NCBI RefSeq assembly: GCF_050481745.1
Contig: NZ_JBCNGR010000013.1
Location: 81,214 to 121,213, forward strand
DNA: 40,000 nt
Direction: 5' to 3'
From: Paenibacillus algorifonticola
GTDB taxonomy: Bacteria > Bacillota > Bacilli > Paenibacillales > Paenibacillaceae
The position numbers and the translations under genes are program-made. Each line of letters opens with the position of its first letter. Within the stretch, counting starts at the first letter, position 1. The notes beneath the pieces were generated by a model, which saw only the letters and a program-made list of their open reading frames with translations, was not told the origin of the DNA and did no database searches. This document shows positions 1-19,019 of the stretch, in pieces.

Positions 1-487
1 GATGCGGCCCATCCGGACCAATTAATTGACCAATCGTATCTGCAAGTCGCCGACGCGCTAGGTCAGGAGAAAGATTAGTAACGGCCTCGTTTAAGTTCTG
101 TCTATATTTGTCGAAGACCTCTCCTTCCATCCCGTCCAATATACGTGCAATAATCTCCTTAAGACTTGTAAATTTAGGGATAAGCAAAACACGTCTGTCC
201 GAGGTTTTCGGTATCTGCGCAGACAACCACCGGATCAGATGAGATTTCCCAGCCCCCGAATCCCCCAACACGGCAACGAAGATATAATCTTCCGGTTTTA
301 AAAATTCCCTAAGAAACTCCTGTTCAGTAAACTTGACACCAGAATTGTTTACCATAGAAGTCGCAATCTCACGATACATCGTCATCGGGTGATGGGTTGC
401 CAAAAAATGATGATGCTCTACCTGCAATGCATCGGGATTCATTACCTGGTCGATTAAGTCCGTTTCCCAACATATATATGGTCTCAA
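1..487 (-). CDS. P-loop NTPase, N-terminal fragment (continues past the left edge); paralogue of the 1063-aa ATPase at 10668..13859
   Basis: Absent from the ORF track because it runs off the window. Minus-strand translation reads ...MNPDALQVEHHHFLATHHPMTMYREIATSMVNNSGVKFTEQEFLREFLKPEDYIFVAVLGDSGAGKSHLIRWLSAQIPKTSDRRVLLIPK... Walker A is GDSGAGKS. Candidate starts are TTG 487 (SD GGAAGAGGA 9 nt upstream) or ATG 442. The spacing and the GxGKSxLxRW context mirror VFGSTGSGKSELLRWIKDKW of the 1063-aa ORF. Confidence 0.7.
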   Translation of the reverse strand, partial: MRPYICWETDLIDQVMNPDALQVEHHHFLATHHPMTMYREIATSMVNNSGVKFTEQEFLREFLKPEDYIFVAVLGDSGAGKSHLIRWLSAQIPKTSDRRVLLIPKFTSLKEIIARILDGMEGEVFDKYRQNLNEAVTNLSPDLARRRLADTIGQLIGPDGPH

Positions 488-491
488 TCTA

Positions 492-1382
492 TCACATCCT
501 CTTCCATGTAATTTCTGAAAATCCACTGAGAACCCCTGAAGCTTCAGGGAAAAGGAACATATCTGCATCTGATTTTCTTAGCAATTCTATTACTCCTCCT
601 TCCTGCAAACGATACCATGCAAAAGCAGTTGATGATGAGAGCAAAAGTGGCTCTGGATTGTCTATCGAGTACTTCTCACTTAACGCTTTGCGAGCCCATC
701 CATTCTCAAATAATGGACTGAGCGAGGCAAGTTCTGATTGAATATCTGAATATCTTAACGTGTCCTTACCTACGAACAGACCTGGCAACAACTTACTTAA
801 ATGGTTGGTCGGATCCACAACCAGTCTCTTTTGCCTATTAATCGTTAACGTCCAAGTAAATCCAAGATAATTCGCCCAATACTCAAACTGTTCAAAACGT
901 GTCTTGTTTTTGCAACCTAATCGGTTGGAATCCGTTTGCTCGTCGAGAGCCAATGCTATTTGTTCCCAGGTCATTGGTGCATATGCATCTTGACTATAGA
1001 ACCACGATATAAGCAAGACCAGATCATGATTCTCATCGTTATGAAGGTCGAAAATACGACGAGTAATTGCATTCACAAGAAAATCATCCCACTCTGCTCC
1101 ATCCAACGGTACAACATCCTCTGCCAAATACAGCATGCTGCCCTCTTCCACAACAACACCCATTTTCACCATTTCATTAATCACTTTCCGAATTCGGTTT
1201 CGATGAGATACCTCCGATGAAACTTCGTTGTCCTCTTCATCCCTCACATCCCCCGCAACAGATAATGGGGATAACATTTCTTCCAATTCGCTTCGCTCAA
1301 TCGGTGAACCAAGGTGTGCGAGTAATCGCCATGTTCCACGAACTCGACTCGGATTTGCTAACGGTTCGTTTAGTACACTCAC
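492..1382 (-). CDS. Hypothetical 296-aa protein, possible winged-helix N-terminus; partner of the downstream P-loop ATPase (DpdG-like position, unverified)
   Basis: GTG start at 1382 overlaps the upstream stop (GTGA) and has SD GGAGG 7 nt upstream. I can name no catalytic motif. There is distant by-eye similarity to the 258-aa ORF at 13828..14604 (FEYWANYLGF vs MECWGLG; RLQEGGVIELLRKSDAD vs ALHQEGELKLSYMQD). Confidence 0.6.
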   Translation of the reverse strand: MSVLNEPLANPSRVRGTWRLLAHLGSPIERSELEEMLSPLSVAGDVRDEEDNEVSSEVSHRNRIRKVINEMVKMGVVVEEGSMLYLAEDVVPLDGAEWDDFLVNAITRRIFDLHNDENHDLVLLISWFYSQDAYAPMTWEQIALALDEQTDSNRLGCKNKTRFEQFEYWANYLGFTWTLTINRQKRLVVDPTNHLSKLLPGLFVGKDTLRYSDIQSELASLSPLFENGWARKALSEKYSIDNPEPLLLSSSTAFAWYRLQEGGVIELLRKSDADMFLFPEASGVLSGFSEITWKRM

Positions 1383-3904: not shown

Positions 3905-6900
3905 CGTAGTCTCCACGAAGCTCACTTCCCGATAATATTATAAAACCAACTGAATCCAAACGAACATGCGGCTTCTTAATGCCAGCCTGCATTGCTTGAT
4001 GTAAATCAGATTCGAAAGCCAAATCAATACGGTCGAATTGTCCATGAATTTGCTGCGTTTTGGCTCTTAACGCCAATTGCTGAAATTGTCGGTTTAATTC
4101 TTGGCGCATCGACTGCAGTGCTTCCTCACATGCCGTGACTACAGATGCATCTTGCATCAAAAGTCGTTCCGAACTTTCACGGGCACAGGCGCACGAGGTA
4201 TGCCACTGGTCAGGCGAGATAAATTCATCTATTACATTTAATCGTTCTTTGGTTAAATTCGTATCGTTACCAAAATCGCTTAATTTCTCAAACGGTGTTT
4301 TCAAGGCTTCTATAACATTGGAGTCATTCACCAGACTACCGCTTGGTGTTACGTTAACTGTGTATATAAAGGGCGGAAAAAACCTATCCAGTTTTCTTTG
4401 CAAAGCTTTTCTATTATATGCTTTACCGTCTATGGAAGAATAGATTGTTTCTGCTGCGGAGACGTTACCTTCGATGATATAATTGAAGCTAAACCCGAAC
4501 CACTCGAAACCTTTCTTGGGATTCCATCCCTTTACTTTGCGCCAAAATGCAAAGGTTCGCCCACGATCATCCCACTTTATGTCATCATCCAGCATTTGAA
4601 TAAAAGGATCTCCAATACGATATATTCGACAATTTTCTTGGGAGGCTGCCGTCATCCGATCATAACTGCCATACCTACTATTAATTTTCGCCATTGCAAT
4701 TGAAGTAGAGATAGGCAATAATGTTTGGCGAGTTGGGGAGTAAGTTAATTCCCCTGATTGTGCATTGGATGATTTACAAGCAAACTTCAGTGCATTAAGA
4801 ACCCACGCCTCCGTGTTCTTTTGAATACGTGCATGATCAGATTCATATGCCACCAAATTTCGAACATATCCATGCACATCGTCATAGCTCGAATCCATTT
4901 CGTCCAGTGCATTTTGTTCCTCTACTTGAATCCTTTCCTCCTCTAGGCGATCTGCGAAAGACTCCCTTACATAATGAATAAAACTTTGAGCACCCTCAGC
5001 ATAAAAGCGACCATAAATTTCTGGAAGGATTCGGTCGATCAGAAATTGCAATGACGAAATGGAGTTTTGAAACACCTTAAGTCCTTCATTCAAGAATATA
5101 TACCAAGCCTCAATCAATGATGGATGATCTGGTCCGGTGAATACATGGGTAGAAAACATTCGAGTACGTCCTAAACGATCTACACGACCTATTCTTTGCT
5201 CCATGCGGCCGGGTTGTGTAAGCAAATCAAAATGTACAATCATATCCGCAAATTGCAAATTGCGTCCTAACTCTCCTGAAGGATCGCAAACCAGTACCCA
5301 ACACTGCTCATTGTATCTAAAACGCTCAATTTCTTGTTCCACTTGGACATCGCTCAATGTTTTGAGATATGGGGCGATTGCCTCAGCTTTGTATACAGAT
5401 CTTAGATGATTAACGATGAAATTTGCCGTAGCATAGTGTCCCGCAAAAACAACAATTTTAGGTGACGTCTTTTTCTTTTTACGTGTCTGTTCCGTAACCG
5501 TATCAATGACCATGACAAGGTGATCCAACCTGTCCTCTTCTTCGGAAGAACAATCAACTGTGTGGAGCAATGACTCAAGTAACTCTCGTTCACCTGAAAA
5601 TAATGGTGTCTCGCGCAATAGTTCGGCCAATTCCGTATTGTAAAGTTCCTTGAATGAGTTGCTTATCTCTCCAGACAATCGCGCCTCTAGTACGTGCCGG
5701 AATACAGGAAGTGCAGAATTCGATAACTCCAATAAATAAAAAAATAACCTTTGATACTTAGTTGAGTGGGAAAATCCATATTCCTGCCATTCTTCCCTTT
5801 CTAAGGCCCACGACGTTTCACGCCATTCATCCATTAAATCCTGAACGGAGGCAGTTCGATTGTCAAAATCGTATTCCTCAGATACTGAGAGTTCACCGCG
5901 TTCAAGATCACGTCCGTACCTAAAAAGTTGTTTTACCGTATCACGACGATTTCGCAACATTCTCCGGTGCAGTCGGTACGTTTCCGTCAAATGATTCCTA
6001 ATAGTCCGTACGGCTGTTATACGTTTTTCTTCATCATTTTTATCCAGAGCATCTAGTAAATACTCCACATTACTGGTCATCAAAACGTCATCTGACACAA
6101 GTTCCAGCAATTTTTCAGCAGATCTACGTAAAAGAAGTGGCTTCGCATTCTCTCGTAAGGTGAACAATATTCTCCCCACATGTTGGCGAATAGAAATAAG
6201 TTTTTGAAATCTTTCAATCTCATCAAGATGGTAATGATCTGGATCTAATAAGTGAAGCATAGCTAGGAAATCTTGTTCATTATGAAGTACCGGTGTTGCA
6301 GATAACAACAACAACCCACGAGCTTGATTTGTTAACTTTTCGACCAAGTGATACAGTTCGCGCTCCTCTTCTATAAGACTCGATGCCTTCGCAGCAATGA
6401 TATGTGCTTCATCAATGATAATTAAATCCCAATCTTTCTCTTGCAGCAAGTTACTACTTGAAGACAACCTTTCAGTTGCACACCATGTAATCTGATCGGT
6501 GAATTCGTACAAATTACATTTGCTATGTAATTCTGATTGCCACTGAATCTGTAAAAATAAAGGAACCACAATGAGAACCGATGAGTTTGGATAATCCAAT
6601 AAAAACTGACGAATTATTACTCCTGCTTCAATCGTCTTTCCGAGACCCACCTCGTCTGCAAGCAAATATCGGGGGACTGGGTCTTCTGATACTCTCCGAA
6701 TAACTTCCACTTGATGGGGATACAGCGAAACAGAAGATGAAAGAAGACCTTCCATCCCACGTCCTACTTTTCGCTGATTCATCATTTCTTTTACAAAAAG
6801 GGTACGTTTACGATTAAAAAAAGCTGTCTCATGTCCCTTGTTGATGATAATATCCATGGGATCTTCAATAGGAAGTGAGCAACGGACAAACAAATTTTCT

Positions 6901-7319
6901 GAGTCAATGTAATTTGAATAGGAGTCAGGAAAGTCAACTTGATAATCTGTTCCATCAAATCCTGTGATACGGCCTATCATCCAGTGCTTTTTATTCGATT
7001 CCCAATAATAGCAACGTGTTTGAATGTCCGGCTTAACAAGTTGTATCTGGCTCAGTCCGATATTTAACCTTTTCCTATTTTCAATGGAAATGAAATACTC
7101 TACAGTTACCATTTCTTCAAACTGATCAATCACTTTTCCTATACCCATATTGTTTAGAGCGATAATGAATCTTCCAATTACATTTTCCATTAGAATAGTC
7201 CTATCCATTCCGAATTTATTGAATGCTATAATAAAAAAATTATCTCCAGAACATTTCAAGTGGTAATCCTTTCTATAAATGTTACCATAAAACCTAAGTA
7301 TAATCTTGCCAATATTCAA
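3897..7319 (-). CDS. SNF2/RapA-like helicase-ATPase with an extra ~450-aa C-terminal region
   Basis: Motifs: LLADEVGLGKTIEAG (I), IIIDEAHIIAA (II, DEAH), LLLSATPVLHNEQDF (III), GELGRNLQFADMIVHFDL and QRIGRVDRLGR (V/VI). The true start is probably an internal Met (ATG 7208 or 7190, MENVIGRF...). That would leave room for a divergent promoter region shared with the plus-strand MBL gene. Confidence 0.85.
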   Translation of the reverse strand: MNIGKIILRFYGNIYRKDYHLKCSGDNFFIIAFNKFGMDRTILMENVIGRFIIALNNMGIGKVIDQFEEMVTVEYFISIENRKRLNIGLSQIQLVKPDIQTRCYYWESNKKHWMIGRITGFDGTDYQVDFPDSYSNYIDSENLFVRCSLPIEDPMDIIINKGHETAFFNRKRTLFVKEMMNQRKVGRGMEGLLSSSVSLYPHQVEVIRRVSEDPVPRYLLADEVGLGKTIEAGVIIRQFLLDYPNSSVLIVVPLFLQIQWQSELHSKCNLYEFTDQITWCATERLSSSSNLLQEKDWDLIIIDEAHIIAAKASSLIEEERELYHLVEKLTNQARGLLLLSATPVLHNEQDFLAMLHLLDPDHYHLDEIERFQKLISIRQHVGRILFTLRENAKPLLLRRSAEKLLELVSDDVLMTSNVEYLLDALDKNDEEKRITAVRTIRNHLTETYRLHRRMLRNRRDTVKQLFRYGRDLERGELSVSEEYDFDNRTASVQDLMDEWRETSWALEREEWQEYGFSHSTKYQRLFFYLLELSNSALPVFRHVLEARLSGEISNSFKELYNTELAELLRETPLFSGERELLESLLHTVDCSSEEEDRLDHLVMVIDTVTEQTRKKKKTSPKIVVFAGHYATANFIVNHLRSVYKAEAIAPYLKTLSDVQVEQEIERFRYNEQCWVLVCDPSGELGRNLQFADMIVHFDLLTQPGRMEQRIGRVDRLGRTRMFSTHVFTGPDHPSLIEAWYIFLNEGLKVFQNSISSLQFLIDRILPEIYGRFYAEGAQSFIHYVRESFADRLEEERIQVEEQNALDEMDSSYDDVHGYVRNLVAYESDHARIQKNTEAWVLNALKFACKSSNAQSGELTYSPTRQTLLPISTSIAMAKINSRYGSYDRMTAASQENCRIYRIGDPFIQMLDDDIKWDDRGRTFAFWRKVKGWNPKKGFEWFGFSFNYIIEGNVSAAETIYSSIDGKAYNRKALQRKLDRFFPPFIYTVNVTPSGSLVNDSNVIEALKTPFEKLSDFGNDTNLTKERLNVIDEFISPDQWHTSCACARESSERLLMQDASVVTACEEALQSMRQELNRQFQQLALRAKTQQIHGQFDRIDLAFESDLHQAMQAGIKKPHVRLDSVGFIILSGSELRGDYDE

Positions 7320-7362: not shown

Positions 7363-8504
7363 ATGGATAGGTTTGTGTCTTTGAAGGTTGGACAAGGAGA
7401 TTCTTTTTATCTACAACGTGATAAATATTCAATACTTGTTGATGGTGGACTGGCGGAGAATGGTTTGGCTAAATTCTTCATGGGGGAGCGAGAAAAAATA
7501 ATCGGTAAAAAAAGATTGATGTATTAGTGTGTACTCACAATGATGCGGATCATGCCAATGGTATTCTCGGATTCTTAAAAAATGAAGAACTGTTATGTGA
7601 TGAAGTTTGGTTGCCTGGAATTTGGACAAGTAGATTAAAAGATATACTTGTTAAGCCTTCCATTTTTATTCATGAGCTAGTTCTTGATATTGATAGTAAT
7701 CATTTGGCATATGATCTGGCTACTCTCGGTGATTCTTACTCGGATAACGAGCTGCCGCTAGACAACAGAAATGAATCTGAGGAATATGTACAATTAGAAG
7801 AATTATATAGTGATCTAGAAGCATCTTTAGAAAAGAATTATGATATTCATGATGTAGCGCAATTTCATAGAGGTCCTTATCTATGGGGACTCTCCCCATC
7901 CCATATTGAATTATTTGTGGAAGCAATTAATGCCGCCAAACTTATTAAGGATATAGCAATTGCGGCTTTTCAGAAAGGTGCAAATATTAAATGGTTTGAG
8001 TATGATGAGTATCAATGCTCAGGCGGTATAGACGGTATATTAGAGCCGTTAAATTCAAAAGAAATTAGTACAGTGAAAAAACGAGGTGCTTTAGAATATC
8101 TAGCTCTTGCTATGGCAAATAGACAAAGCTTAGTATTCCATTCTCCTAGTTCTTCAAATGCACCTGCTATACTATTCTCTGCAGACTCTAATTTTGAATT
8201 TAAACAAACCATTCCTTGGTCAAACGGAATGATAATAACCGCATCACATCATGGTTCCAAAAGCAATAGTAATTGCTATCTTCGCTACGAAAATGAAAGA
8301 TCGGAGCATCTAAATTCTATTTGGATCCGTAGTGATGGTCGCTTTAGATCAAGACCTGGTCCTTGGTACTTAAAGATTCAATCTACGCAACGTTACTGCA
8401 CACGATGCAGCCCAGATTTTAAATCCTCACAAAATGTTGAGTTTACTGCTAATAAATCCGAATGGCAATCATCATCAATTGCATGTACATGTGGCCAAAA
8501 GTAA
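7363..8504 (+). pseudogene. MBL-fold (ComEC-like metallo-beta-lactamase) hydrolase gene split by a frameshift in an A7 run
   Basis: Frame A (7363..7527) reads MDRFVSLKVGQGDSFYLQRDKYSILVDGGLAENGLAKFFMGEREKIIGKKRLMY*. This is the usual MBL N-terminus (VGQGD...ILVDGG). Frame B (the ORF-track 7527..8504) continues with (I)DVLVCTHNDADHANG... and a later SHHGS motif. The two frames join at the A7 tract 7507..7513, and one extra A would give ...IGKKKIDVLVCTHNDADH. Confidence 0.7.
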
Positions 8505-8708: not shown

Positions 8709-9443
8709 TCAAACCCCTCGCTTGTTCCCCCACAACAAAGTGTGTAACTGCGGGAGAACTTTAACCTGTTTCAACTCCGATGATACCATGACTTGATTAA
8801 TCAACCACTCATACCTCTCTAGTAAAGCAAATACCAAACTTTCTCTATCAACTGTCGTTACATCGCTATTTCCGACCTGCAAAACCAGTCTCATGTGAGG
8901 ATAGCGCTTATGAACTTTTATAGCATACTGAAGATCATCTTCGTCAAAAATGACTACTTTAATACATATTTCATTCGGACTATTATTCAAGTTCGTGATA
9001 ACCCCATCTAATCTATCCCAATCGGTTATCATTCCTGAACTTGGTGGTTTTGGGGAAACCGTCAAGTCGTCAATATCCGCCATCCAATCTTGCCATCTGC
9101 TTCCTTGTGTTTCTAACCCAACTCGAATCCCCTTATCATGAAGCAAATCGACCAAATATCCAATATTCTTTATAATTGCTGGATTACCGCCAGAAATTGT
9201 TACATGCTCGAACGTGGTTCCACCAAGAGAATTCAATTCATCGTAAATCGCTTGAGGAGACAATTGTTTAATTTCATTCTTTGCAGAACCATCCCATGTA
9301 AAGGATGAGTCACACCATGAACAGGAATAGTCACAACCAGCTGTCCGAACAAACATCGTTTTTTGCCCGATTACCAGGCCTTCCCCCTGAACAGTTGGCC
9401 CGAATATTTCTAAAACCGGGATAGGATTTTCTTTGTGAGTCAA
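8709..9443 (-). CDS. queE: 7-carboxy-7-deazaguanine synthase QueE (Bacillus-type radical SAM)
   Basis: Near-colinear with B. subtilis QueE as I recall it: PVLEIFGPTVQGEGLVIGQKTMFVRTAGCDYSCSWCDSSFTWDG ... VLPQLHTLLWGNKRGV. I prefer TTG 9443 (SD GGGAGTGGA 7 nt upstream, TTGA overlap with the queD stop). The ORF-track alternative is GTG 9455. Confidence 0.93.
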   Translation of the reverse strand: MTHKENPIPVLEIFGPTVQGEGLVIGQKTMFVRTAGCDYSCSWCDSSFTWDGSAKNEIKQLSPQAIYDELNSLGGTTFEHVTISGGNPAIIKNIGYLVDLLHDKGIRVGLETQGSRWQDWMADIDDLTVSPKPPSSGMITDWDRLDGVITNLNNSPNEICIKVVIFDEDDLQYAIKVHKRYPHMRLVLQVGNSDVTTVDRESLVFALLERYEWLINQVMVSSELKQVKVLPQLHTLLWGNKRGV

Positions 9444-9931
9444 TCTGCCATCCACTCCCGTCTTGCTTCAGCATAGCTGGTTGGCGTTTCGAATAACCGG
9501 ACAAACTCAGTTTTTGCGTCCACTTCTTTTGATGAGTATTTGTCCGTACTTAGCGCCGCTTCCATCTGCTCATACAGCCAAACAACTATGTTTTCCGCAG
9601 TCGTGTTCATTAATGGCAATGTTTCATTTAGATATCTGTGGTCTAAGAATGGTTCAATTTGCTCACGCCAAATTGTTTTCAGCATGCTAAAGTCTATCGT
9701 CAGGCCAATCTCATTTGTATAGCCACTTATTCCAAAAACCACCTTATAGGTATGGCCATGTAGATTTTTGCATTTGCCTTCATAAGCATGTAAATGATGC
9801 GCGGCGTCAAAAGTGAATTCCTTACTGACCAATACTCTGCGTTGATGATATTTTAACTGATCTTCAGTAATATCCTTTCCATACTTTTGCAATGCATCTA
9901 CAATGACAAATTGCCCTGGTACTTTATTCAT
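9440..9931 (-). CDS. queD: 6-carboxy-5,6,7,8-tetrahydropterin synthase QueD
   Basis: [28 protein letters not shown] matches the QueD/PTPS signature. ATG 9931 overlaps the queC stop (ATGA). The ORF-track start at 10003 lies inside queC and is an artefactual extension. Confidence 0.9.
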
Positions 9932-10599
9932 GACATTTGCTCCGAATTTCTTGTCTGTAAAAAAGTATCCAGACCAGCTTTTCTCAACTGACAAGCTGGA
10001 CAATTACCACAACCGTCACCGATAACCCCGTTATAGCAGGTTAATGTCTTCTTACGTACAAATTCAAAAGCACCTAACTGATCAGCCATCTCCCACGTCT
10101 CTGCTTTATTAATCCACATCAACGGAGTATGAATGATAAAGTTATGATCCATCGCTAAATTTAACGTTACATTTAGAGATTTAACGAAATCATCCCTACA
10201 GTCGGGATAGCCACTGAAATCTGTTTCGCATACACCTGTTACAATATGTCGAGCTCCTACTCCTTTAGCAAAGACCGCCGCGAAACTTAAAAATAAGTGG
10301 TTTCGTCCTTCTACAAATGTACTTGGAAGTTCGCCATCATTATGAACAATTTCTACGTCATCACGCGTCAACGCATTTTGAGTTAATTGGCCGAGTAGGC
10401 TCATATCAAGTAAAGTCCATTTTACTCCTAATTCATAAGCAATTTGCTTAGCACATTCAATTTCTAATGCATGCCTTTGACCATAATTGAAGGTGACAGC
10501 CTCCACCTCATCAAATTGCTTCATTGCCCAAAACAAACAAGTTGTACTATCTTGACCGCCACTAAATACAACAACGGCTTTTTTGTTTTTTTTATCCAT
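9928..10599 (-). CDS. queC: 7-cyano-7-deazaguanine (preQ0) synthase QueC
   Basis: [19 protein letters not shown] (PP-loop), [15 protein letters not shown], and the C-terminal zinc motif [16 protein letters not shown]. Colinear with B. subtilis QueC. Confidence 0.95.
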
Positions 10600-10667: not shown

Positions 10668-13600
10668 CTATTTATCGTCTCCAACAACTAATCTAATCTC
10701 TACAACATCAAACAAGTTGGGGAATTTTTCTTTAATCTCATCCAGCAGACGCTTCCATTGTATTGGAGGAAGTGTACTATATCCATTTTCGATAAGTAAT
10801 CGGATATGCCGTTTTATGGAGGGTCTAATTTGTGGGCTTTCGTTGATTTTTTCTAGTAGGTGATAGATACTTTCAACATCTTCACAATCAAAATCATTTC
10901 TGATTACTTGAAGAAGGTGCAATTTGGTCTGCTCATGTTGAAGTTTTCTTTCGATCCGATCTCTTAGTTCATAGAAATCTATAGATTGCCATTCAGCAAT
11001 TAAGGAACTTAATTCAGCACCAATGTGTTTCTTTTTTTTCAGACGATTTACACCATTCTCCAATCTAATCAGGAGTTTCTTTATATGCTCTAAATCCCCT
11101 AGCTTAATTTGAAGATCCAGCAGATACTTCACTAAATTTCGTGGAGTAAGAGCAAGGCAGTTTTTCAAACTTTCCAATTCCTGAATAATAATTATGAAGT
11201 TAGCTTTACCCGCCTCTAATTCAGACCAGTTTACTTCGTCCTTTTTATTGATTTTCGCTTCTTCTTGTTCATAATTTGTTTGCGCGCAACTCTCAGTGAG
11301 AAGACTTTCAACTTCAAGCATCATCTCGTCAAATTGTTTACTCAACTGTCTCATCTCACTAAATAAAATAGTAGCACTTTTATATTGAGCGGCGAGTGCT
11401 TGATCATCCAATTCTTGTTCCAGCAAAGTGTAAGCAACAAAGTCTTGTTGTGTAATACTCTTCTTCTCGCTAAAAGCTTTAATTTGTTCAGCAAGTTCTA
11501 TCAATTTCAAATTATTGGAGCCAAGTAAAAAAGGAATCATGTTCATCCTTTTTTCGAGTGACTGCTTAAAGCTATCTTGAAGTAGTTTAAAGTATTTATG
11601 GTAACTTTCTTTCAATTGGGATAGAAATACCCGTAGAGTAGTATCTCCAATTTGATAGTGTTCTAAGATTTTCGATGGCACAAGATTCATAAACCAATAA
11701 TCAAATTCTTCATTCGTCAAAACCGCTTTACTAGGCGGCTGAAAAAAGTTATCACGTAACAAGTACCAATCTGAATAACAATCCTCAAGAAGAGCTAATA
11801 ATTCTGTTCGGAATGGAGAATATTCAATTACATTTGAGGCCCAAGATGATTTGCTGTATATTTGAGCATTTTGAACCCAGTATTTCATCCCGTACACAAA
11901 TACAGGAAGATTCAACCCAAGAGCCTGTTCAAGAGAATTAAGCCATTCATCATGGATTGACTCTGCTTGATGTATCCATTTAGCAATTTCATATTCATTG
12001 GAATTTTTCTGAAACATCCTTACCTTTTCTGAATACTTCATGGTTTGAAAGTTGGCAATTTGAATAGCAATAAATCCTCTGCTGACGCTTATTGTAGACT
12101 CATCCTTGTTATTCTGGAGTGTAATCGGATACCTTGTTCGATTCACAACTTCATTTCGCTGAATGGATGATGAAGTTTTGGATGTGAATGAGCGGGACAT
12201 ATGAATTCCCTTTACAGCATCATGCACCAATGCAGCCACCCCCGATCTAACCGGCAATAATAATTCTTCATTTACATCTCTTCCTTCTACCCAATCTCTA
12301 ACCACTGCCTTTTCATTGAAGCCATTATTACTATCTTTTTTCGGCTCATCAAGTAATTGCTGCTCATCTCTTAAGCTACTTCCAACACTATTTAGTTTCA
12401 CAGTGATTTGATTATCCTTATATCCAAAGTACCTTAATACAGGTTCTGAAATTGTAATCTTCTCCGCTTCTTCAGAGGCATACCATTCTGCGAGAGTTTT
12501 GATAAAAACATCCGAATGCTCAGCGAACATCTCCCTCCTTATTATAGGAAGTATTCTACTAATATCTTTCTTACCTCTTAGAAAAAAGCGAATAACTTCT
12601 TTACTATTCAAAATCATGTAACGTAATTTCCCTTTTCCCATTGGAATTGCATCATACGTTCTCCTTAACATATGGCTATTAAATGGAAGCAACTGAACTT
12701 CAATATCATTTAATTTAGATTCAATCTCACTTGATTCCGTGGTAATACTTGAACATTGGTCGTAGTACGGACACTCAGGAGAGCATTTAAAGCCTTGTGT
12801 TGCTTTCAACTGTGTAAGGTACTTAGCCATATAAGGAATTACTTGTCCACGATCTAGGTTGAAAAAGTCTTTCCCTGATTCGTCAGATAGCCATAACTTT
12901 TTTACCCGGTCATTTATGGTGTCAAGATTTTGGATTCTTTGTGTAAGACTGAATCCTTTTTCTGTATCCTGAACCGCGCCAGGCGTTAGACCAATTACTA
13001 CATCCCAATTCCCCTCTTCTAATGTAATAAGTTGATCCAATATATTGGTTGCGTAAATATTAACCGATTGAACAAGATCGTCAATGAGAAGCAATGGACG
13101 GATACCCTTGCTTTTTATCTGCTGGGATAATTGTTTAAACAGGGTTCCAATGTCCCGTCCTTCAAACAGAAAATGGTCCAGTTTCCGAGAAAGTGTTTGT
13201 CGAAATGTTGCATACTCCAGGGGGATATTAACAGTCGTGTTAACAAGTAACGATTCGAATTGCTCACGATGTAGAACTTCTAGTGGTTTTTTGATTCTTC
13301 CTCGTTTAACTTGAGAAGTAAATTCTACAATATTCTTCTCAATTATTGATCTCAACAATAGTGCTGCTGGAACAATTTCCTCATCGGATTCTAGCGATTC
13401 GGCAAGTGCCGTCCAGACCATTTGGTTAACAAGCGTAATAGGCTTTTTGAGTAATAGCCCCCACTTATCTTCGTCAATACAAACATCTAAAGACAAATTT
13501 AATGCGTCTAAACATTTTTTGATTAGTGTCTGGGGGTTTAACTCTGTCCGTGAAATTCGTATCACCGGTCGTTCAGATACTTCCACTAACCATTTATCTT

Positions 13601-13859
13601 TTATCCAACGAAGCAGTTCAGATTTCCCTGATCCCGTCGAGCCAAATACTAAATAAACCCTGTTGCCATCGGAATCAACTTCTTTGAGTTCTTCCAGCAA
13701 TTCGCCTTCCGTAACCTCAGCGATCAGATGACTGTCATTAAATCTATGCATTACTTGAGGGAAATGGGTTTTTCTAAAATACTCAGGTGATTGGTCGTAA
13801 CGCTCGTCTGCAGTTCCTACTAAAAGTTTAAGCGAATTTTTGTTGAGACAAGGCATCAT
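10668..13859 (-). CDS. Large (1063 aa) P-loop NTPase with a long helical, coiled-coil-like C-terminal half
   Basis: Walker A is VFGSTGSGKSE (residues ~72-80) and Walker B-like is RPLLLIDDLVQ (~255-263). The start ATGATG at 13859 has SD GAGAGGGGA 10 nt upstream. It overlaps the upstream ORF by 32 nt. It is paralogous to the partial ORF at 1..487. Confidence 0.8.
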   Translation of the reverse strand: MMPCLNKNSLKLLVGTADERYDQSPEYFRKTHFPQVMHRFNDSHLIAEVTEGELLEELKEVDSDGNRVYLVFGSTGSGKSELLRWIKDKWLVEVSERPVIRISRTELNPQTLIKKCLDALNLSLDVCIDEDKWGLLLKKPITLVNQMVWTALAESLESDEEIVPAALLLRSIIEKNIVEFTSQVKRGRIKKPLEVLHREQFESLLVNTTVNIPLEYATFRQTLSRKLDHFLFEGRDIGTLFKQLSQQIKSKGIRPLLLIDDLVQSVNIYATNILDQLITLEEGNWDVVIGLTPGAVQDTEKGFSLTQRIQNLDTINDRVKKLWLSDESGKDFFNLDRGQVIPYMAKYLTQLKATQGFKCSPECPYYDQCSSITTESSEIESKLNDIEVQLLPFNSHMLRRTYDAIPMGKGKLRYMILNSKEVIRFFLRGKKDISRILPIIRREMFAEHSDVFIKTLAEWYASEEAEKITISEPVLRYFGYKDNQITVKLNSVGSSLRDEQQLLDEPKKDSNNGFNEKAVVRDWVEGRDVNEELLLPVRSGVAALVHDAVKGIHMSRSFTSKTSSSIQRNEVVNRTRYPITLQNNKDESTISVSRGFIAIQIANFQTMKYSEKVRMFQKNSNEYEIAKWIHQAESIHDEWLNSLEQALGLNLPVFVYGMKYWVQNAQIYSKSSWASNVIEYSPFRTELLALLEDCYSDWYLLRDNFFQPPSKAVLTNEEFDYWFMNLVPSKILEHYQIGDTTLRVFLSQLKESYHKYFKLLQDSFKQSLEKRMNMIPFLLGSNNLKLIELAEQIKAFSEKKSITQQDFVAYTLLEQELDDQALAAQYKSATILFSEMRQLSKQFDEMMLEVESLLTESCAQTNYEQEEAKINKKDEVNWSELEAGKANFIIIIQELESLKNCLALTPRNLVKYLLDLQIKLGDLEHIKKLLIRLENGVNRLKKKKHIGAELSSLIAEWQSIDFYELRDRIERKLQHEQTKLHLLQVIRNDFDCEDVESIYHLLEKINESPQIRPSIKRHIRLLIENGYSTLPPIQWKRLLDEIKEKFPNLFDVVEIRLVVGDDK

Positions 13860-14604
13860 TTAAATCACATCCCCTCTCTACCTTTATCCAATTAAATTCG
13901 TTTTTAGGTCCATATGATTTATAAGGTAAATCTTGCATGTAACTTAGTTTCAACTCTCCTTCTTGATGTAATGCCATTAAAGAAAAGATAACCCCTCTGT
14001 AGATGTTCCCTTCAGTTGTTAGGCATGGTATAACCGGATCAATTATCTTTTCACAAAATGGATGCAATCCTCCCTCCCATGTCTCATTCCTCTTAATGAT
14101 ACTTTTCATTAACGAAAGCTGTGGAAGTGCATAGAAGCCTGAGTAAATACGTCTACCCAATCCCCAGCATTCCATCATTCGCTTCCACGCATTCACTTTC
14201 TCTTGCCCAACTAGTGTTTTCTTTAATTGGCTATTGATTTGGTAGTGAATATTACTCAAAAACAATTTATCCGGCTTTACAAATAACTGTTCAAATAGGG
14301 AAGCAAATACTTTATCAAGTGAATCGCTAGGTATATTTTCAGAATTTGAAAGTTCCCTCAATTTTAAAAAAACCTCTTTGTTGCACCATGGCTTGTCCTG
14401 TAGTACAAAATATTGTGATTTGTCTTTATATATAAACTGTAAATCCTCTAATACGATCAAACTACATTCAATTAACGATGTGATGTCCCCGCTATCAACA
14501 TGCTGAAATCTTGTTTTTAACTTCTCTACATCCAGTCCAGGATTAATTCTTAAATTTTCATAAATCACTTCAATTTCCGGTCCGTAGCACATTTGAAACA
14601 ACAT
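13828..14604 (-). CDS. Hypothetical 258-aa protein; partner of the 1063-aa ATPase and distant paralogue of the ORF at 492..1382
   Basis: Strong SD AAGAGGAGGAG lies 5 nt before ATG 14604. It overlaps both neighbours, by 35 nt upstream and 32 nt downstream. No recognisable catalytic motif. Confidence 0.65.
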   Translation of the reverse strand: MLFQMCYGPEIEVIYENLRINPGLDVEKLKTRFQHVDSGDITSLIECSLIVLEDLQFIYKDKSQYFVLQDKPWCNKEVFLKLRELSNSENIPSDSLDKVFASLFEQLFVKPDKLFLSNIHYQINSQLKKTLVGQEKVNAWKRMMECWGLGRRIYSGFYALPQLSLMKSIIKRNETWEGGLHPFCEKIIDPVIPCLTTEGNIYRGVIFSLMALHQEGELKLSYMQDLPYKSYGPKNEFNWIKVERGCDLNDALSQQKFA

Positions 14605-15502
14605 GCTCGCTCCTCCTCTTATTATTTTCTAAAATATCGTTAAATGTTCTAAGTAAGTGGTAATAGTTATGGATTGATCTTAACTTCATATATTCTCTTG
14701 GAGATGGGACTAAGATCTGCTTTGCGTCATTTTCACATACAGGGCATTCACAATTAAGTGGATTTTCCAATCGTGGACTTGTGGGTTTAGCTCGCGATTC
14801 TGAGAGAAAAAAGGTTCTAAATGGTCTGCTATAGAACACTTGAAAGAACGCTGCCGCCATTGTTGGTCGTGTTGAATCAAATGAACTTACGCCAATATCA
14901 ACCATTGCACTAAGTTGGGGAATTCCTGTTACTCCAAATACATGCAGGTTTGAAGGCCCTACAACATCTGCTGCCCTTCTGATCATTTCAATTTGCTGCG
15001 TCTGATGTCTAAAAAGTAACGATCCAATTCCAAATTTCTTATACCCCATCTTGATCAACTCATAAGCTGAAAACTCAATACTAGCTTGGTCATAACCTTG
15101 AATGACTCCCATTGCTTGAACAGATTTCGGAAGATTATATTTATGAAAAATATTGAAATACTCATAAGCATTGAATAGCGTTCTTTCTATAGCCATGAAA
15201 CGTTCAGATAAAGAGGACTTATTTAACAGTGGTTCATCAAAATGAACCATTTGAACATTTGTTTTTTTTTCGCAATCTTCTAAGATTGAGAGCTGAATAT
15301 CAAAAACTTCTTTTAGTGGAGGCCTAATTTTTTGTTTAACATAAAACACTGATCCACAGTCTAGTATTAGCTTGCTAGGTTTATTTTTATACCTTTTTAC
15401 TCCTCCTCTATTGTCCGGTATAGCACTAATTAAAACCGGACATTGAGGAAAGTAATCACAAAATACTGCATCACTGTGTGACCAACCAATATAAAATTCC
15501 AT
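14570..15502 (-). CDS. Second, compact TGT-superfamily (DpdA-like) protein
   Basis: Matches to the 684-aa ORF: ILDCGSVFY (cf. MGDCGAFSY), GVIQGYD...MGYKKFGIGSL (cf. GIVQGWD...LGYDYIALGGL), GVSSFDSTRPT (cf. E. coli Tgt GVDMFDCVMPTR). The zinc motif is CECPVCEN...HNYYH. I prefer ATG 15502 (MEFYIGW..., SD GAAGGAG 8 nt upstream). The ORF-track start at 15580 has no usable SD and sits upstream of a candidate promoter. Confidence 0.75.
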   Translation of the reverse strand: MEFYIGWSHSDAVFCDYFPQCPVLISAIPDNRGGVKRYKNKPSKLILDCGSVFYVKQKIRPPLKEVFDIQLSILEDCEKKTNVQMVHFDEPLLNKSSLSERFMAIERTLFNAYEYFNIFHKYNLPKSVQAMGVIQGYDQASIEFSAYELIKMGYKKFGIGSLLFRHQTQQIEMIRRAADVVGPSNLHVFGVTGIPQLSAMVDIGVSSFDSTRPTMAAAFFQVFYSRPFRTFFLSESRAKPTSPRLENPLNCECPVCENDAKQILVPSPREYMKLRSIHNYYHLLRTFNDILENNKRRSEHVVSNVLRTGN

Positions 15503-15553
15503 ATCCTCATCTCCTTCTACAATAAAAATTACGTGATCATACGTGATATTTTT

Positions 15554-15562
15554 ATTGTAGCA
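15554..15562 (-). promoter_or_regulatory. Candidate internal promoter (extended -10 TGCTACAAT) for the TGT2 / ATPase / queCDE genes
   Basis: The minus strand reads TGCTACAAT just downstream of the terminator at 15593..15620. It is followed by a tandem ATCACGTA repeat on the minus strand (plus-strand TACGTGAT at 15530..15537 and 15540..15547), then the SD of TGT2. Confidence 0.4.
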
Positions 15563-15592
15563 CATCTCACCAGCACTCATCTACTCTTTGAA

Positions 15593-15620
15593 TAAAAAAA
15601 AGAAGCCATCAGGCTTCTTT
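15593..15620 (-). terminator. Rho-independent terminator at the end of the 264-aa ORF, inside the gene array
   Basis: On the minus strand: AAAGAAGCC-TGAT-GGCTTCTTT, a 9-bp stem and 4-nt loop that contains the TGA stop, followed by TTTTTTATT. Confidence 0.65.
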
Positions 15621-16403
15621 TATCCATTGTCTCCATATTTCATATATTAAACCGCGTTGTGCATCATTAAATTTAAAATTTCCTTTATTAACAAGTAGAA
15701 CTGGATTGTCTCTGTCAAAAAACTGACCTTTCCAATTCTCATAATTGAATTCCTCTGAGAGTAGTGGCCGCGGCAGATTGGTTAACTGAGAATCCTCAGT
15801 CCATTGCTCCATGAAATATCTAATATAGCAATACCAAGCAATGGCTGAGTCGGCAATGGATTTTTTTCGAAACTGTTTTCTCTGTGCTACAGGAAGATAC
15901 CCTAGTTCAGGATAATCACTCATTATAGAGTCAACATATTTAATCAAATCTTTAGCTAATCGAGGGCATAAACTACGTTCAACTCGATACCTTTGAAAAT
16001 CCTTAAAAATATCATACAGCGATCTAAAAGTCATTAATTTAGTGGAGTTGCTACTTATTTTCTCCCCCTTTTCAATCAACCGTTCGAAACGCTTATAAGA
16101 CATTAACTGATGCATACAGTAACTCGGAAAGTGTTGGGTTTCAGATACAATTAGAACGACGTATTCATCGCTCATACTGCCGCTGGGCAGTTTATAAGTA
16201 AACCGGGGATTCGTCACTTGTAACTCATTGTTTATTAAACTTAACACAGTATCATAATTTACTAAAATGACCTCTTCGCCAATTACATCAGACTGAATTA
16301 CAGGAAAACCCCAGTCTTTAATAACCCCTAATGGCAGTACTGTAAAATAAACGTCATCATTCTTTCTAGTTAAATTGCTTACGTTTTCAAAAGTAAAAAC
16401 CAT
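15609..16403 (-). CDS. Hypothetical 264-aa protein located between the two TGT-like genes
   Basis: SD GGGGGA lies 6 nt before ATG 16403. Codon usage is coherent and AT-rich, like the neighbours. I recognise no motif (no P-loop, no DGQHR). Confidence 0.6.
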   Translation of the reverse strand: MVFTFENVSNLTRKNDDVYFTVLPLGVIKDWGFPVIQSDVIGEEVILVNYDTVLSLINNELQVTNPRFTYKLPSGSMSDEYVVLIVSETQHFPSYCMHQLMSYKRFERLIEKGEKISSNSTKLMTFRSLYDIFKDFQRYRVERSLCPRLAKDLIKYVDSIMSDYPELGYLPVAQRKQFRKKSIADSAIAWYCYIRYFMEQWTEDSQLTNLPRPLLSEEFNYENWKGQFFDRDNPVLLVNKGNFKFNDAQRGLIYEIWRQWIKEA

Positions 16404-16418
16404 GAAATTTCCCCCAAC

Positions 16419-16457
16419 GCAAATATGCCTTAGTGTACCACACTAAGGCATGTTTGC
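16419..16457 (-). other. Strong intercistronic stem-loop (18-bp stem, one mismatch, 3-nt loop) with no U-tract
   Basis: On the minus strand: GCAAACATGCCTTAGTGT-GGT-ACACTAAGGCATATTTGC. It sits between the stop of the 684-aa ORF (16461) and the SD of the next ORF. Confidence 0.6.
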
Positions 16458-16460
16458 GCA

Positions 16461-18497
16461 CTATTTATCCCATCGTTTTTTTAATTCCTGGATCTGAGTG
16501 TAGTAGACATGGGTATTGTGAAACCCTCTCCGTCTGTTTCTATTATTACCCCTAAATACAATCACATCAATTCCAATTTCCCTGCATATATTACAACCAC
16601 ATTGTTCCCATGGACGTTCAGACAAAACCTCTCTATAAAGATCCTCATGAACTTCGCGCTTTTCCCCAAGTATTTTATCATACTCCAGTATAGCTTCAAG
16701 TGTGGGTTCTAGTTCTCTTGTTCCCGCACTGAAATTCCTAAGAGCACTTAATGCCTCCTGTTCAAGCCTTCTATACTCCGCAAACTCAATTTCATCACTA
16801 TTCTGCAACATTTTTTTCACTCTTCCAGATGTTTCTTTCGCTTCTGGGATTCTAATCGCTGTGTAATGTTTACCACTCAAGGAGTGATAATTATGCCCTG
16901 TTCCTAACCACGCTCTTCTCAACGGAGAAGAAGAGTCAAATGATGTTACACCTAATTTATGAAAAGACTCCATTGTTCTCACATCTCGCGCAACACCGAA
17001 CAAGTGCATCCGAAACGTAGGGCTTGGAATAATAGGAGATATTTCTTTTAGAATCTCATATATTTTCTCAGATTGTTCTCTAGCTAAACCACCTAGGGCA
17101 ATATAGTCATAACCTAATTCAATAAGATGCTCTACTGCTCTTCGGAAAGAAGGCGGGTCCCATCCTTGGACTATACCTATAGGATGGAACTGATAATTCC
17201 TGGTTTCTCTGTCCTCCCTATACATGCGTATAAATTCTTCCGCCATAGTAAGGGTTAGTTCATAACGCTGATTTCTAATATTTTCGTCTCTCTGGAAGGG
17301 ACCCACTATTAGATGGTCAATTGATACCCCATAATCAAAACCCAAGTTGTGGTAGTAATCCATAATCTCTTGGGTCGTATACGGCGGTACTTCTTTATCA
17401 ATATAACTAAAGGCACCACAATCCCCCATAATCGGGTATTCCCTAGGTAGTCGATAAAAATCATGTAACCCCATATCTTTTATCATCTGATTTTTTTGCT
17501 TAGTAGCATTATCAATATTAACTTTAGAAACAAGCAGTCCATCAAACTGAGGTCTTTCAAAAATCTGATGAGCGTACACATCATTTTCTAATGGATTTCT
17601 GTTTTTTTCTGAAAAATCAGCCATAAAATCATAGTGTGGATCGACTCTATCATCATTCTCTGGAAGATAAAATCTGGGTTCCTCAATGCAATTTATAGCT
17701 ACTAACTCATCTGGTACAGGAAACATTTCATTATAGAACTGTAATAAATCTTCTTTTTCAGATGCGTCACTAAATAACTCAGGTTGTTTTGTTGAAGCAA
17801 TTGAATCCAAAATAAACTCTCTAATCTGATCAGGATGATATTTTATTGTTCTCCACTTCTGTTCAATGTTATCTGTAATAATATTCCTCAGTAAGTGTGC
17901 AAAAAGATAACCTTTGATTCCTATCAAACCATATTTAAATGTTTTAGCTTCTTTTTCTCCAATAGTTAATACATGATAATCGTCCCAGTTTAGAATTCGA
18001 GAACGACTAGATGCTCCTGCGAAAAAGATCGCTTTTTGATTACTTTGCAACTTTAATGGCCACTCCACCGCTTGCAAATATTTGTCTCCAAGTAAGAAGA
18101 ATACAAGATCATAATCAGCAATTTTTTTTTGTAGATTTTGTGTGACTTCAAGTTGACGCGCCCACTTTTTTATAGTCTGCGAGTCCATTGTATTAAAAGT
18201 CACTTCATACGGTACAATTTGCGCATCTTCATTCAAAAGACCATAACCCGCTGAAATAATGCAAAGATCAATTTTCCCACCTTGTTTCCGGTATTCTTTA
18301 ATACCACTCATTAGCGCAAGGTGTTGACTCCCTGTATACATTTCATCAGCACGTTCTCTGAATTCCAACAATTCTGCTTCTCTTTGTTTTAATATTTTTT
18401 TATTCTTGAAATCATCAAATACAAGTTGATTTATTGGTTTATGTAACTTCTCTCCAGTACAAGAAGTGACAACAAGAATACGTTTTGACACAAACAT
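16461..18497 (-). CDS. DpdA-like TGT-superfamily transglycosylase fused to an N-terminal ~280-aa domain
   Basis: The C-terminal ~400 aa read RFYLPENDDRVDPHYDF..., MGDCGAFSY, GIVQGWD, GVTSFDSSSPLRRA, with zinc motif CGCNIC...GFHNTH. The N-terminal part reads ILVVTSCTGEK...CIISAGYGLLNEDAQIVPYEVTF. That pattern reminds me of YaaA/DUF328-type proteins ([21 protein letters not shown]), but this is weak recall. The start is probably ATG 18497 or GTG 18491, not the ORF-track GTG 18515. Confidence 0.8.
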   Translation of the reverse strand: MFVSKRILVVTSCTGEKLHKPINQLVFDDFKNKKILKQREAELLEFRERADEMYTGSQHLALMSGIKEYRKQGGKIDLCIISAGYGLLNEDAQIVPYEVTFNTMDSQTIKKWARQLEVTQNLQKKIADYDLVFFLLGDKYLQAVEWPLKLQSNQKAIFFAGASSRSRILNWDDYHVLTIGEKEAKTFKYGLIGIKGYLFAHLLRNIITDNIEQKWRTIKYHPDQIREFILDSIASTKQPELFSDASEKEDLLQFYNEMFPVPDELVAINCIEEPRFYLPENDDRVDPHYDFMADFSEKNRNPLENDVYAHQIFERPQFDGLLVSKVNIDNATKQKNQMIKDMGLHDFYRLPREYPIMGDCGAFSYIDKEVPPYTTQEIMDYYHNLGFDYGVSIDHLIVGPFQRDENIRNQRYELTLTMAEEFIRMYREDRETRNYQFHPIGIVQGWDPPSFRRAVEHLIELGYDYIALGGLAREQSEKIYEILKEISPIIPSPTFRMHLFGVARDVRTMESFHKLGVTSFDSSSPLRRAWLGTGHNYHSLSGKHYTAIRIPEAKETSGRVKKMLQNSDEIEFAEYRRLEQEALSALRNFSAGTRELEPTLEAILEYDKILGEKREVHEDLYREVLSERPWEQCGCNICREIGIDVIVFRGNNRNRRRGFHNTHVYYTQIQELKKRWDK

Positions 18498-18512
18498 CCC
18501 ATCCCTTATTAA

Positions 18513-18545
18513 CACAATATAAAATAGGGCGTTCCCGCCCTATTT
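18513..18545 (-). terminator. Terminator/attenuator-like hairpin between the transporter gene and the DpdA-like gene
   Basis: On the minus strand: AAATAGGGCG-GGAA-CGCCCTATTT, a 10-bp stem with a GNRA-type loop. It lies directly after the TAG stop at 18546 and is followed by TATATTGTG, so the U-tract is only moderate. Confidence 0.5.
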
Positions 18546-19019
18546 CTAAACAGCTTTTGCATGTTTGAAAAAAACTTTTTTAACAATGATTGCAGCAAAT
18601 ATTTGAACCAATGTCTTAACAATGATTTGGCCAACAATCGCCAGAAATACAGCATTCCATGGAAGAATATTCGCTCCCAATGGGGATAGACCCACAACAA
18701 CAAAGATAATACTGTCTAGTATTCCTCCAACAATCCCACTGTATGCTACCCTCATATGAAAAGGTAATTTAAGGCGCGAATAGATTTCGGTATCAGTGGT
18801 CTCAGATACTGCAAACGTAATAATTGAGGCAAACACAATCCAAAGTGTGTCCCCTAGTAAATATGATGTTAATGCTGATAAAACCATGGCTAATAGAATA
18901 AGTAAATAGGTATTCCGCCGACCAACAAAATTTTGCACAAAATCACGGAATATAAATGTTGCCCCTATTATAAAAGTCCCTGCCGGGATAATAAAGGGTC
19001 CAATAAAAAACGGCGCCAC
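18546..19019 (-). CDS. VUT/YhhQ-family (queuosine-precursor) transporter; the 5' end lacks a canonical start and is possibly degraded
   Basis: Multi-TM protein with FRDF..., ...DSIIF... segments typical of DUF165/VUT. The frame stays open and hydrophobic for 20 more codons upstream (YLTIVAYLLAIVSSNVVTAG, cf. the E. coli YhhQ ITSSN segment as I recall it). That stretch has no ATG, GTG or TTG. See the finding for this region. Confidence 0.6.
   Translation of the reverse strand: MAPFFIGPFIIPAGTFIIGATFIFRDFVQNFVGRRNTYLLILLAMVLSALTSYLLGDTLWIVFASIITFAVSETTDTEIYSRLKLPFHMRVAYSGIVGGILDSIIFVVVGLSPLGANILPWNAVFLAIVGQIIVKTLVQIFAAIIVKKVFFKHAKAV

Follow-up and report, generated by a model that had tools for sequence, protein, structure and literature searches.

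What does a second copy of a gene pair, a small protein of about 250-300 amino acids (aa) followed by an ATPase of about 1000 aa, do in a single DNA modification-restriction island? The question is raised by a 40,000-nucleotide (nt) stretch of Paenibacillus algorifonticola (assembly GCF_050481745.1, contig NZ_JBCNGR010000013.1, positions 81,214 to 121,213; hereafter the window, with positions counted from its first letter), which holds a Dpd (7-deazaguanine) island. Pair A comprises G2 (13828..14604, 258 aa) and the P-loop ATPase H2 (10668..13859, 1063 aa). Pair B comprises a 296-aa protein (492..1382) and the start of an ATPase gene that runs off the window (1..487). All four open reading frames (ORFs) lie on the minus strand, at the positions given by a preliminary description of the sequence, which read the pairs as a duplicated module with one copy perhaps serving modification and the other restriction. 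We know of no established roles for DpdG and DpdH, nor of an account of how DpdA-type enzymes reach bases in duplex DNA; the sole clue known to us is the requirement for the ATPase activity of DpdB. The comparisons described here indicate that pair B is the DpdG-DpdH pair itself and that pair A is a distant paralogue, which recurs beside a compact DpdA-like transglycosylase, TGT2.

Island ORFs were named by curated models (NCBIfam, Pfam and PADLOC), with NF041064 and NF041065 as references for DpdG and DpdH (Thiaville 2016, Gedara 2023). The 296-aa protein of pair B scores 114.3 bits on NF041064 (cut-off 80), and the annotation of the source contig lists Pfam PF28110 for it. The 162 codons of its partner that fall in the window match NF041065 at 197.6 bits, in register over profile positions 1-162. 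DpdG stops 4 nt ahead of DpdH, and the pair lies directly downstream of two restriction-side helicases on the same strand, the SNF2-type DpdE (3897..7319, 931.5 bits) and the RecQ-like DpdF (1379..3925, 857.6 bits), both above their NCBIfam cut-offs. The order dpdE-F-G-H, suggested in the preliminary description, is thereby confirmed. The truncated gene could also be followed beyond the window: 735 aa of the DpdH of pair B were recovered on Logan contig L001, and full-length DpdH orthologues in loci L003 and L040. In L003, a related Paenibacillus-type island, the 1024-aa orthologue is followed by DpdI, DpdJ, DpdK and DpdD. Because curated models name it and L003 continues in this way, we identify pair B as the standard DpdG-DpdH pair of a restriction operon that runs dpdE-F-G-H and onward.

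H2 does not reach the curated DpdH family. Its sole NCBIfam match is to the DpdH model, at 28.3 bits against a cut-off of 450 (residues 24-118, profile positions 21-119), and PADLOC gives a DpdH match at 2e-7. BLASTP aligns it with the pair B fragment at E 1e-7 (29% identity over 101 aa), and the same stretch of about 100 residues matches full-length DpdH from the Paenibacillus-type island (E 8e-7) and from a Nostoc plasmid (E 6e-7). For profile comparison, 116 H2 sequences were set against 35 DpdH sequences from mostly cyanobacterial loci; DpdG and DpdH diversity was drawn from 36 such loci and the Nostoc plasmid, and a word-index search with DpdG gave seven close relatives. The hhalign alignment joins residues 24-544 of H2 with 32-619 of DpdH (Prob 98%, E 2.7e-13, score 122.8). 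It brings together an FxxTHxPxxMxR segment, Walker A, Walker B (LLIDDLV/LLIEDFA), a CxxxCxHxxxC cluster and an LxPF motif. In H2 these include Walker A GSTGSGKSE (73-81), Walker B LLLIDDLV (255-262) and the cysteines C359/C363/C369; across 36 diverse homologues the residues of Walker A and B never vary. Walker A begins about 72 residues from the start in both ATPases, so that the shared N-terminal layout noticed earlier holds. The roughly 70 residues ahead of the P-loop of H2 match DpdH by themselves (E 7.9e-6), and the likeness is therefore not generic P-loop similarity. Run on the cyanobacterial loci, the H2 profile retrieves 27 proteins, all of them DpdH. The C-terminal halves show no significant similarity between the H2 and DpdH profiles (score 21, P 0.078).

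The kinship of the small proteins emerges at the profile level. G2 and the pair B DpdG are not similar by BLASTP (E 8.7), and G2 has no curated family in NCBIfam, Pfam or PADLOC. Searched with 44 relatives against NCBIfam, it gives no DpdG match at E up to 10 (cut-off 80 bits); two of ten distant relatives match DpdG faintly (E 0.023 and 0.13). The G2 profile family holds 138 sequences, including distant representatives (70 cluster representatives from a profile search), and the DpdG family 39. Between them hhalign finds an end-to-end alignment, residues 11-244 against 14-295 over 226 columns (Prob 93.1%, E 3.2e-7, score 53.2), and the blocks ECWGLG/YWANYLGF and ALHQEGELKL/RLQEGGVIELL, singled out in the preliminary description, fall in register. 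The G2 family hidden Markov model also matches one true DpdG (L035, 23 bits). At least 80 close homologues of G2 were found, often on contigs that carry H2 as well. Reversed or column-shuffled templates scored 18-30 for the ATPases and 10.8-18.2 for the small proteins, and unrelated Dpd families 14-23. The real comparisons, at 53 and 123, thus stand against controls of 11-30, and the similarity is far above chance.

Paenibacillus DpdH keeps 35% identity to cyanobacterial DpdH over its full length; H2 is recognisable only by profiles. Pair A is an ancient paralogue of DpdG-DpdH rather than a recent duplication, and it forms a separate, unnamed sister family. The two pairs have the same gene order, the same approximate sizes and overlapping or abutting ORFs, with end-to-end profile homology of the small proteins and the common ATPase motifs listed above. 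They differ in that pair A stays below the curated cut-offs (28 bits against 450 for the ATPase, nothing against 80 for the small protein), has an unrelated C-terminal half in its ATPase, is not followed by DpdI, and is preceded by a transglycosylase-family gene instead of DpdE and DpdF, within a modification and preQ0 operon. The proposed duplication therefore survives as paralogy of both proteins, above controls, with the ATPase homology confined to the N-terminal half. The preliminary description counted it as a refutation if both pairs mapped to named families; pair B does, and pair A maps to none. Database names for pair A relatives are 'hypothetical' or 'P-loop NTPase fold protein' throughout, H2 matches a Paenibacillus algorifonticola protein called hypothetical at 100% identity, and current annotation labels both pair A proteins hypothetical.

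Structure prediction places H2 close to BrxC, the ATPase of BREX (bacteriophage exclusion) systems. The AF2 (AlphaFold2) model of H2 (pLDDT 82.8) has as its top Foldseek match 9zll_B, the N-terminal part of Acinetobacter BrxC (E 4.4e-4, prob 1.00, 484 columns), followed by RdrA, TrwB and ORC/Cdc6. The match is in keeping with a preprint in which DpdH plus DpdI is equated with BrxC (10.1101/2025.09.15.676423). No BrxC/PglY model of NCBIfam or PADLOC matches H2 at E up to 0.01, and PADLOC gives no DptH match. Pfam returns only sub-threshold AAA_22, ATPase_2, NACHT and nSTAND5 matches at the P-loop, and KAP (PF07693) is recorded for only 3 of 120 H2 homologues among the matches listed. The model of G2 (pLDDT 94, pTM 0.88) shows three consecutive winged-helix-like units; its best Foldseek matches, none of which reaches an E below 5e-3, are tandem winged-helix proteins (RPC3, SelB WH2-4, Stn1, VPS25). 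When the H2 and G2 profiles were searched against PDB sequences, they returned only helical-bundle noise and a faint ArsR-type winged-helix hint. Two other identities were rejected: G2 as BrxB or BrxA, neither of which is among its top 50 Foldseek matches, and H2 as a DpdH-DpdI fusion, as H2 has no DpdI-like region. No DpdI-like gene follows H2.

The preliminary description overlooked both the linkage of pair A to TGT2 and the fused nature of a 684-aa protein nearby. TGT2 (14570..15580, minus strand) is 336 aa as called, and its relatives are 295-314 aa. It scores 74 bits on the NCBIfam DpdA model (NF041059, cut-off 200), above the models for tRNA-guanine transglycosylase (TGT), and its sole PDB sequence match is the DpdA structure 7ui4. 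D74, D115 and D235 are the equivalents of DpdA Asp95, Asp130 and Asp256, and the zinc site consists of C277/C279/C282 with an HNYYH motif. In a family alignment of 16 sequences, two of them cut short by contig ends, the catalytic aspartates, the zinc site and the HNYYH motif are invariant wherever the sequences cover them. The spacing from nucleophile to zinc site (D235 to C277) is 42 aa in TGT2 and 112 aa in Salmonella DpdA. The 70 residues missing from TGT2 correspond to the Ins8 four-helix bundle, which contacts duplex DNA in the DpdA-DNA model (PMC10164549). TGT2 therefore keeps the catalytic and zinc-site residues and lacks the DNA-contacting bundle of DpdA. The 684-aa protein (16461..18515, minus strand) joins a DUF6884/DpdC-like N-terminus (Pfam DUF6884, 2e-13; PADLOC DpdC, 7e-11) to a canonical DpdA domain at residues 281-677. 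This domain scores 453 bits on the DpdA model, matches PDB 7ui4 at 6.9e-89 and keeps the 112-aa spacing; TGT2 neither passes the cut-off nor has this spacing.

TGT2, G2 and H2 form a conserved three-gene module across classes of Bacillota. A TGT2 orthologue adjoins G2-H2 in all 16 distinct loci with enough flanking sequence: the window, Priestia, Halobacillus, P. lautus, Laceyella, Desulfocucumis, Desulfotomaculum, a Dethiobacter-type contig, GCA_040768765 and seven metagenome contigs. A metagenome scan with the H2 alignment yielded seven loci. In the window the TGT2/G2 overlap is 35 nt and the G2/H2 overlap 32 nt, and the latter recurs elsewhere at 20-32 nt; like the 4-nt gap of pair B, this accords with the overlapping or abutting genes described earlier. 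TGT2 is co-directional with the pair in Bacillales, divergent in the clostridial-type loci and downstream in L046. Twelve loci, counting L003, carry Dpd restriction genes on the same stretch, and a canonical DpdA domain, as a DpdC-DpdA fusion, is also present in 8 of the 16. In L057 G2, H2, a helix-turn-helix (HTH) gene, DpdC/A, YhhQ and QueC are contiguous and co-directional. A phage origin of the module was dropped, a viral-contig scan and a tblastn search of phage genomes with TGT2 both being empty.

Several loci show further peculiarities around the module. All clostridial-type loci have an Xre-type HTH gene directly after H2 (L041 13663-14148, L042 13664-14095, L056 13492-14064, L057 13410-13823), which may encode a controller-like regulator of the module. 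On metagenome contig L046 (5320-8787), H2 is split into two ORFs of 602 and 520 aa. In L044 and L045 the module stands beside an integrase, a SIR2-nSTAND1-FGE-sulfatase protein, an unannotated 1008-aa protein and a DpdJ-like helicase (PADLOC, 150 bits in L044), with no DpdA, DpdG/H or preQ0 genes within 10 kb of the module. These two loci may represent a different Dpd-like system that uses the same module.

Within the window pair A lies among the modification genes, as the preliminary description had it: pair B directly follows DpdE and DpdF, and pair A is located instead between TGT2 and queC. The preQ0 synthesis genes queC (9928..10599), queD (9440..10003) and queE (8709..9455) are on the minus strand, queC directly downstream of H2, and take their names from the source-contig annotation, which lists the Pfam families QueC, PTPS and Radical_SAM. 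In a consensus scan for terminators, minus-strand terminator-like hairpins follow the YhhQ-type gene at the head of the modification genes, the fusion gene and the gene for a 264-aa protein, and a strong one follows queE (8698-8669). The whole stretch from the TGT2 start to the queE end has none except a weak one inside queC. With terminator-like hairpins otherwise absent until after queE, TGT2-G2-H2-queC-queD-queE look like one transcript. A 19-bp near-perfect palindrome (16418-16458) occupies the 57-nt gap between the fusion gene and the 264-aa gene, and similar hairpins occur at 18521-18546 and 15598-15621; these elements could be terminators, attenuators or protein-binding sites.

The preliminary description also held that DpdB is missing and that pair A might supply its ATPase role. 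None of the ten larger island proteins that were scanned matches a DpdB model, and to that extent the claim stands; it must be qualified for the 264-aa protein (15609..16403, minus strand), which is DndB-like. This protein has no family match of its own; homologues of it occur in Priestia, Halobacillus and P. lautus. TIGR03233 DndB is matched by two of the four members of its family (best E 4.4e-6); the homologue in L040 aligns with the C-terminal part of Pfam DndB (3.4e-5, profile positions 166-307 of 338), and one homologue faintly matches DGQHR (0.041). The protein occurs in some Bacillales islands only, is missing from many related ones, among them the Laceyella and clostridial-type islands, and has no recognisable DGQQR NTPase motif. 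Its sequence suggests a short DndB/DpdB-like remnant with no visible NTPase motif.

How might pair A work? In Salmonella, DpdA without the ATPase DpdB cannot exchange guanine in DNA (PMC10164549). BrxC shows ATP-regulated DNA binding, and its mutations affect both host methylation and restriction (PMC13326643). In BREX it is accompanied by a multi-HTH DNA-binding protein, the tripartite BrxA/DUF4007 (PMC12839542). We propose that G2, with its three winged helices, and H2, a BrxC-like AAA+ protein, would form a complex that binds DNA and scans or remodels it using ATP. The complex would then present target guanines to TGT2, which has no DNA-gripping bundle of its own, and might serve the DpdC-DpdA fusion likewise. 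The module would thus fill the ATP-dependent role held by the ParB-like DpdB in Salmonella; the restriction helicases and nuclease would be served in an equivalent way by DpdG-DpdH. The two pairs could represent a subfunctionalised BrxC role, with one pair for self-marking and the other for restriction. That pair A is the ATP-driven, DNA-engaging partner for base exchange in place of DpdB fits its operon position and anatomy, and we regard this proposal as about equally likely to hold or to fail. We are more tentative about its fuller version, that TGT2-G2-H2 is a self-contained and portable base-exchange machine in which the ATPase and the triple winged-helix adaptor load a minimal transglycosylase onto double-stranded DNA.

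Several observations weigh against the proposal. The homology of H2 with DpdH ends at about residue 545. The DpdB result holds for the islands, and a DpdB may be encoded elsewhere in these genomes. With a canonical DpdA in 8 of the 16 loci, TGT2 is not obviously needed for marking, and the proposal does not account for two apparently active transglycosylases side by side. In the clostridial-type loci TGT2 is divergently transcribed and abuts dpdD. DpdG and DpdH themselves sit in the restriction operon, so that a role in restriction or sensing would be just as natural for a paralogue. A rival reading places the module on that side: TGT2 would flip out and probe or excise bases as a readout of their modification state, and G2-H2, in the manner of DpdG-DpdH, would relay this to the DpdE/F/J helicases and the DpdK nuclease. 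Genetics in Salmonella assigned dpdD-K, including DpdG and DpdH, to the restriction half (PMC10164549), and G2 and H2 are paralogous to members of it. Moreover, the module directly abuts dpdD-dpdK-dpdJ in L041, L042, L047 and L057, eight loci have a canonical DpdA already, and in L044 the module lies near a DpdJ-like helicase and a SIR2-STAND gene, away from any DpdA or preQ0 gene within 10 kb. Nevertheless, TGT2 shows no variation in its nucleophile and acid/base aspartates or anywhere in its base pocket, which suggests catalysis over mere reading. In Bacillales the module seems to share a transcript with queCDE, ahead of the terminator dividing it from dpdE-H, and in L057 it belongs to one gene string with DpdC/A, YhhQ and QueC. 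We consider a restriction or sensing role unlikely on balance.

Two apparently active transglycosylases together in at least eight loci would be accounted for if the module were a second self-contained marking system, in which TGT2 with its own G-H pair installs another 7-deazaguanine derivative or marks another motif than the fusion does. It is consistent with this that the DpdC amidase-like domain is fused to only one of the transglycosylases, that QueF adjoins the Laceyella island and that the L044 module has no visible DpdA. However, no additional tailoring enzyme is conserved with the module, and most loci have a single set of restriction genes; a second mark seems to us improbable. A remaining explanation, that the likeness of the pairs is chance or generic P-loop similarity, or that pair A is a decaying duplicate without function, could appeal to the non-significant single-sequence BLASTP of the small proteins and to the sub-cut-off scores of pair A on the curated DpdH and DpdG models. 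The controls refute it, with profile-profile scores 3 to 6 times those for shuffled, reversed and unrelated-family templates. The significance of the pre-Walker A segment on its own, the specificity of the H2 profile for DpdH, more than 200 full-length homologues with invariant motifs and a linkage kept across classes of Bacillota point the same way, and we give this explanation almost no credence.

The proposal that pair A assists base exchange finds parallels in two other systems. Like BREX, the module sets a large ORC/Cdc6-type ATPase, whose N-terminal residues (about 480) have BrxC (PglY) as their nearest solved fold, beside a small multi-winged-helix protein, and the three-winged-helix build of G2 parallels the BrxA/DUF4007 DNA-binding partners of BrxC (PMC12839542). 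Unlike BREX, there is no BrxC sequence match and no PglX, PglZ or BrxB among the island ORFs, and the modifying enzyme is a base-exchanging transglycosylase instead of a methyltransferase. By analogy, pair A may work like BrxC with BrxA; given the lack of sequence matches and of PglX and PglZ, it is not a BREX member. BRC (BREX-related capture) systems have a TGT without DpdB or DpdC and a STAND NTPase, and their authors propose that another NTPase replaces DpdB (PMC12839542). They share with the present module a TGT that lacks DpdB and is accompanied by BrxC-like and BrxA-like proteins. In contrast, BRC is defined by HerA/FtsK, PglZ, DUF6079 and GNAT, none of which occurs at this module, and the module is found inside otherwise canonical Dpd islands carrying DpdD-K. 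The resemblance to DpdB would be one of proposed role only, that of an ATPase in a modification operon enabling a DpdA-family enzyme on double-stranded DNA; DpdB is ParB-like with a DGQQR motif and H2 is an AAA+/P-loop protein, so the two would be functional analogues at most. Neither a second DpdG/DpdH pair nor TGT2 was found described in the literature searched. A survey of dpd clusters required dpdA plus dpdB (PMC12235509) and would therefore miss these Bacillota islands.

If TGT2-G2-H2 is indeed a self-contained base-exchange machine, DpdG-DpdH-type pairs would be general units for scanning or loading DNA, which evolution has attached in one case to a modifying enzyme and in another to restriction helicases and a nuclease, and the dual role of BrxC would be split into two dedicated paralogues within one island. 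This would tie Dpd mechanistically to BREX, where the BrxC ATPase serves both marking and restriction. A natural variant without DpdB, in which a divergent G-H pair is joined to a stripped-down transglycosylase, makes the roles of DpdG and DpdH accessible to experiment, through three-protein reconstitution and clean deletions.

The low-GC (guanine plus cytosine) island spans positions 1 to about 19,700, at 36-46% GC compared with about 52% in the flank, and all but two of its genes are on the minus strand. Along the direction of transcription the order is YhhQ/Vut_1-type protein, DpdC-DpdA fusion, 264-aa protein, TGT2, G2, H2, QueC, QueD, QueE, a 325-aa plus-strand ORF, DpdE, DpdF, DpdG and the start of DpdH. 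Rfam and tRNA scans of the window were empty. The YhhQ/Vut_1-type membrane protein (18546..19019, minus strand), a putative preQ0 transporter, heads the modification genes. It is linked by phmmer to an ORF of L046, and PF02592 Vut_1 occurs at the orthologous position in L053, L055, L056 and L057. The DpdC (DUF6884)-DpdA fusions of these Bacillota islands are 660-820 aa long. Several cyanobacterial Dpd loci have the fusion too, as ORFs of 625-702 aa matching the TGT profile; cases beyond the window are L007, L008, L015, L020, L026, L028 and L030.

Between queE and dpdE lies the 325-aa ORF (7527..8504, plus strand), whose N-terminus carries a metallo-beta-lactamase (MBL) motif of HxDxDH-like form, THNDADHANG, and which faintly matches Avs1a MBL (E 0.009) and LmuA (E 0.002); small HTH genes occupy its place in L003. 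QueF, a preQ0 reductase, is encoded beside the Laceyella island (L053 4876-5361), and a preQ1-type DNA mark is a possibility there. At the right edge of the window's island, just ahead of the rise in GC, a DUF6979 protein is encoded (19290-19697, plus strand; Pfam E 2e-41), and a TRAM/tRNA-U5-methyltransferase (RumA-like) gene (19898-21448, minus strand) adjoins the island. The P. lautus island (L055) stands beside the same kind of RumA-like gene (348-1940), which suggests a common insertion site.

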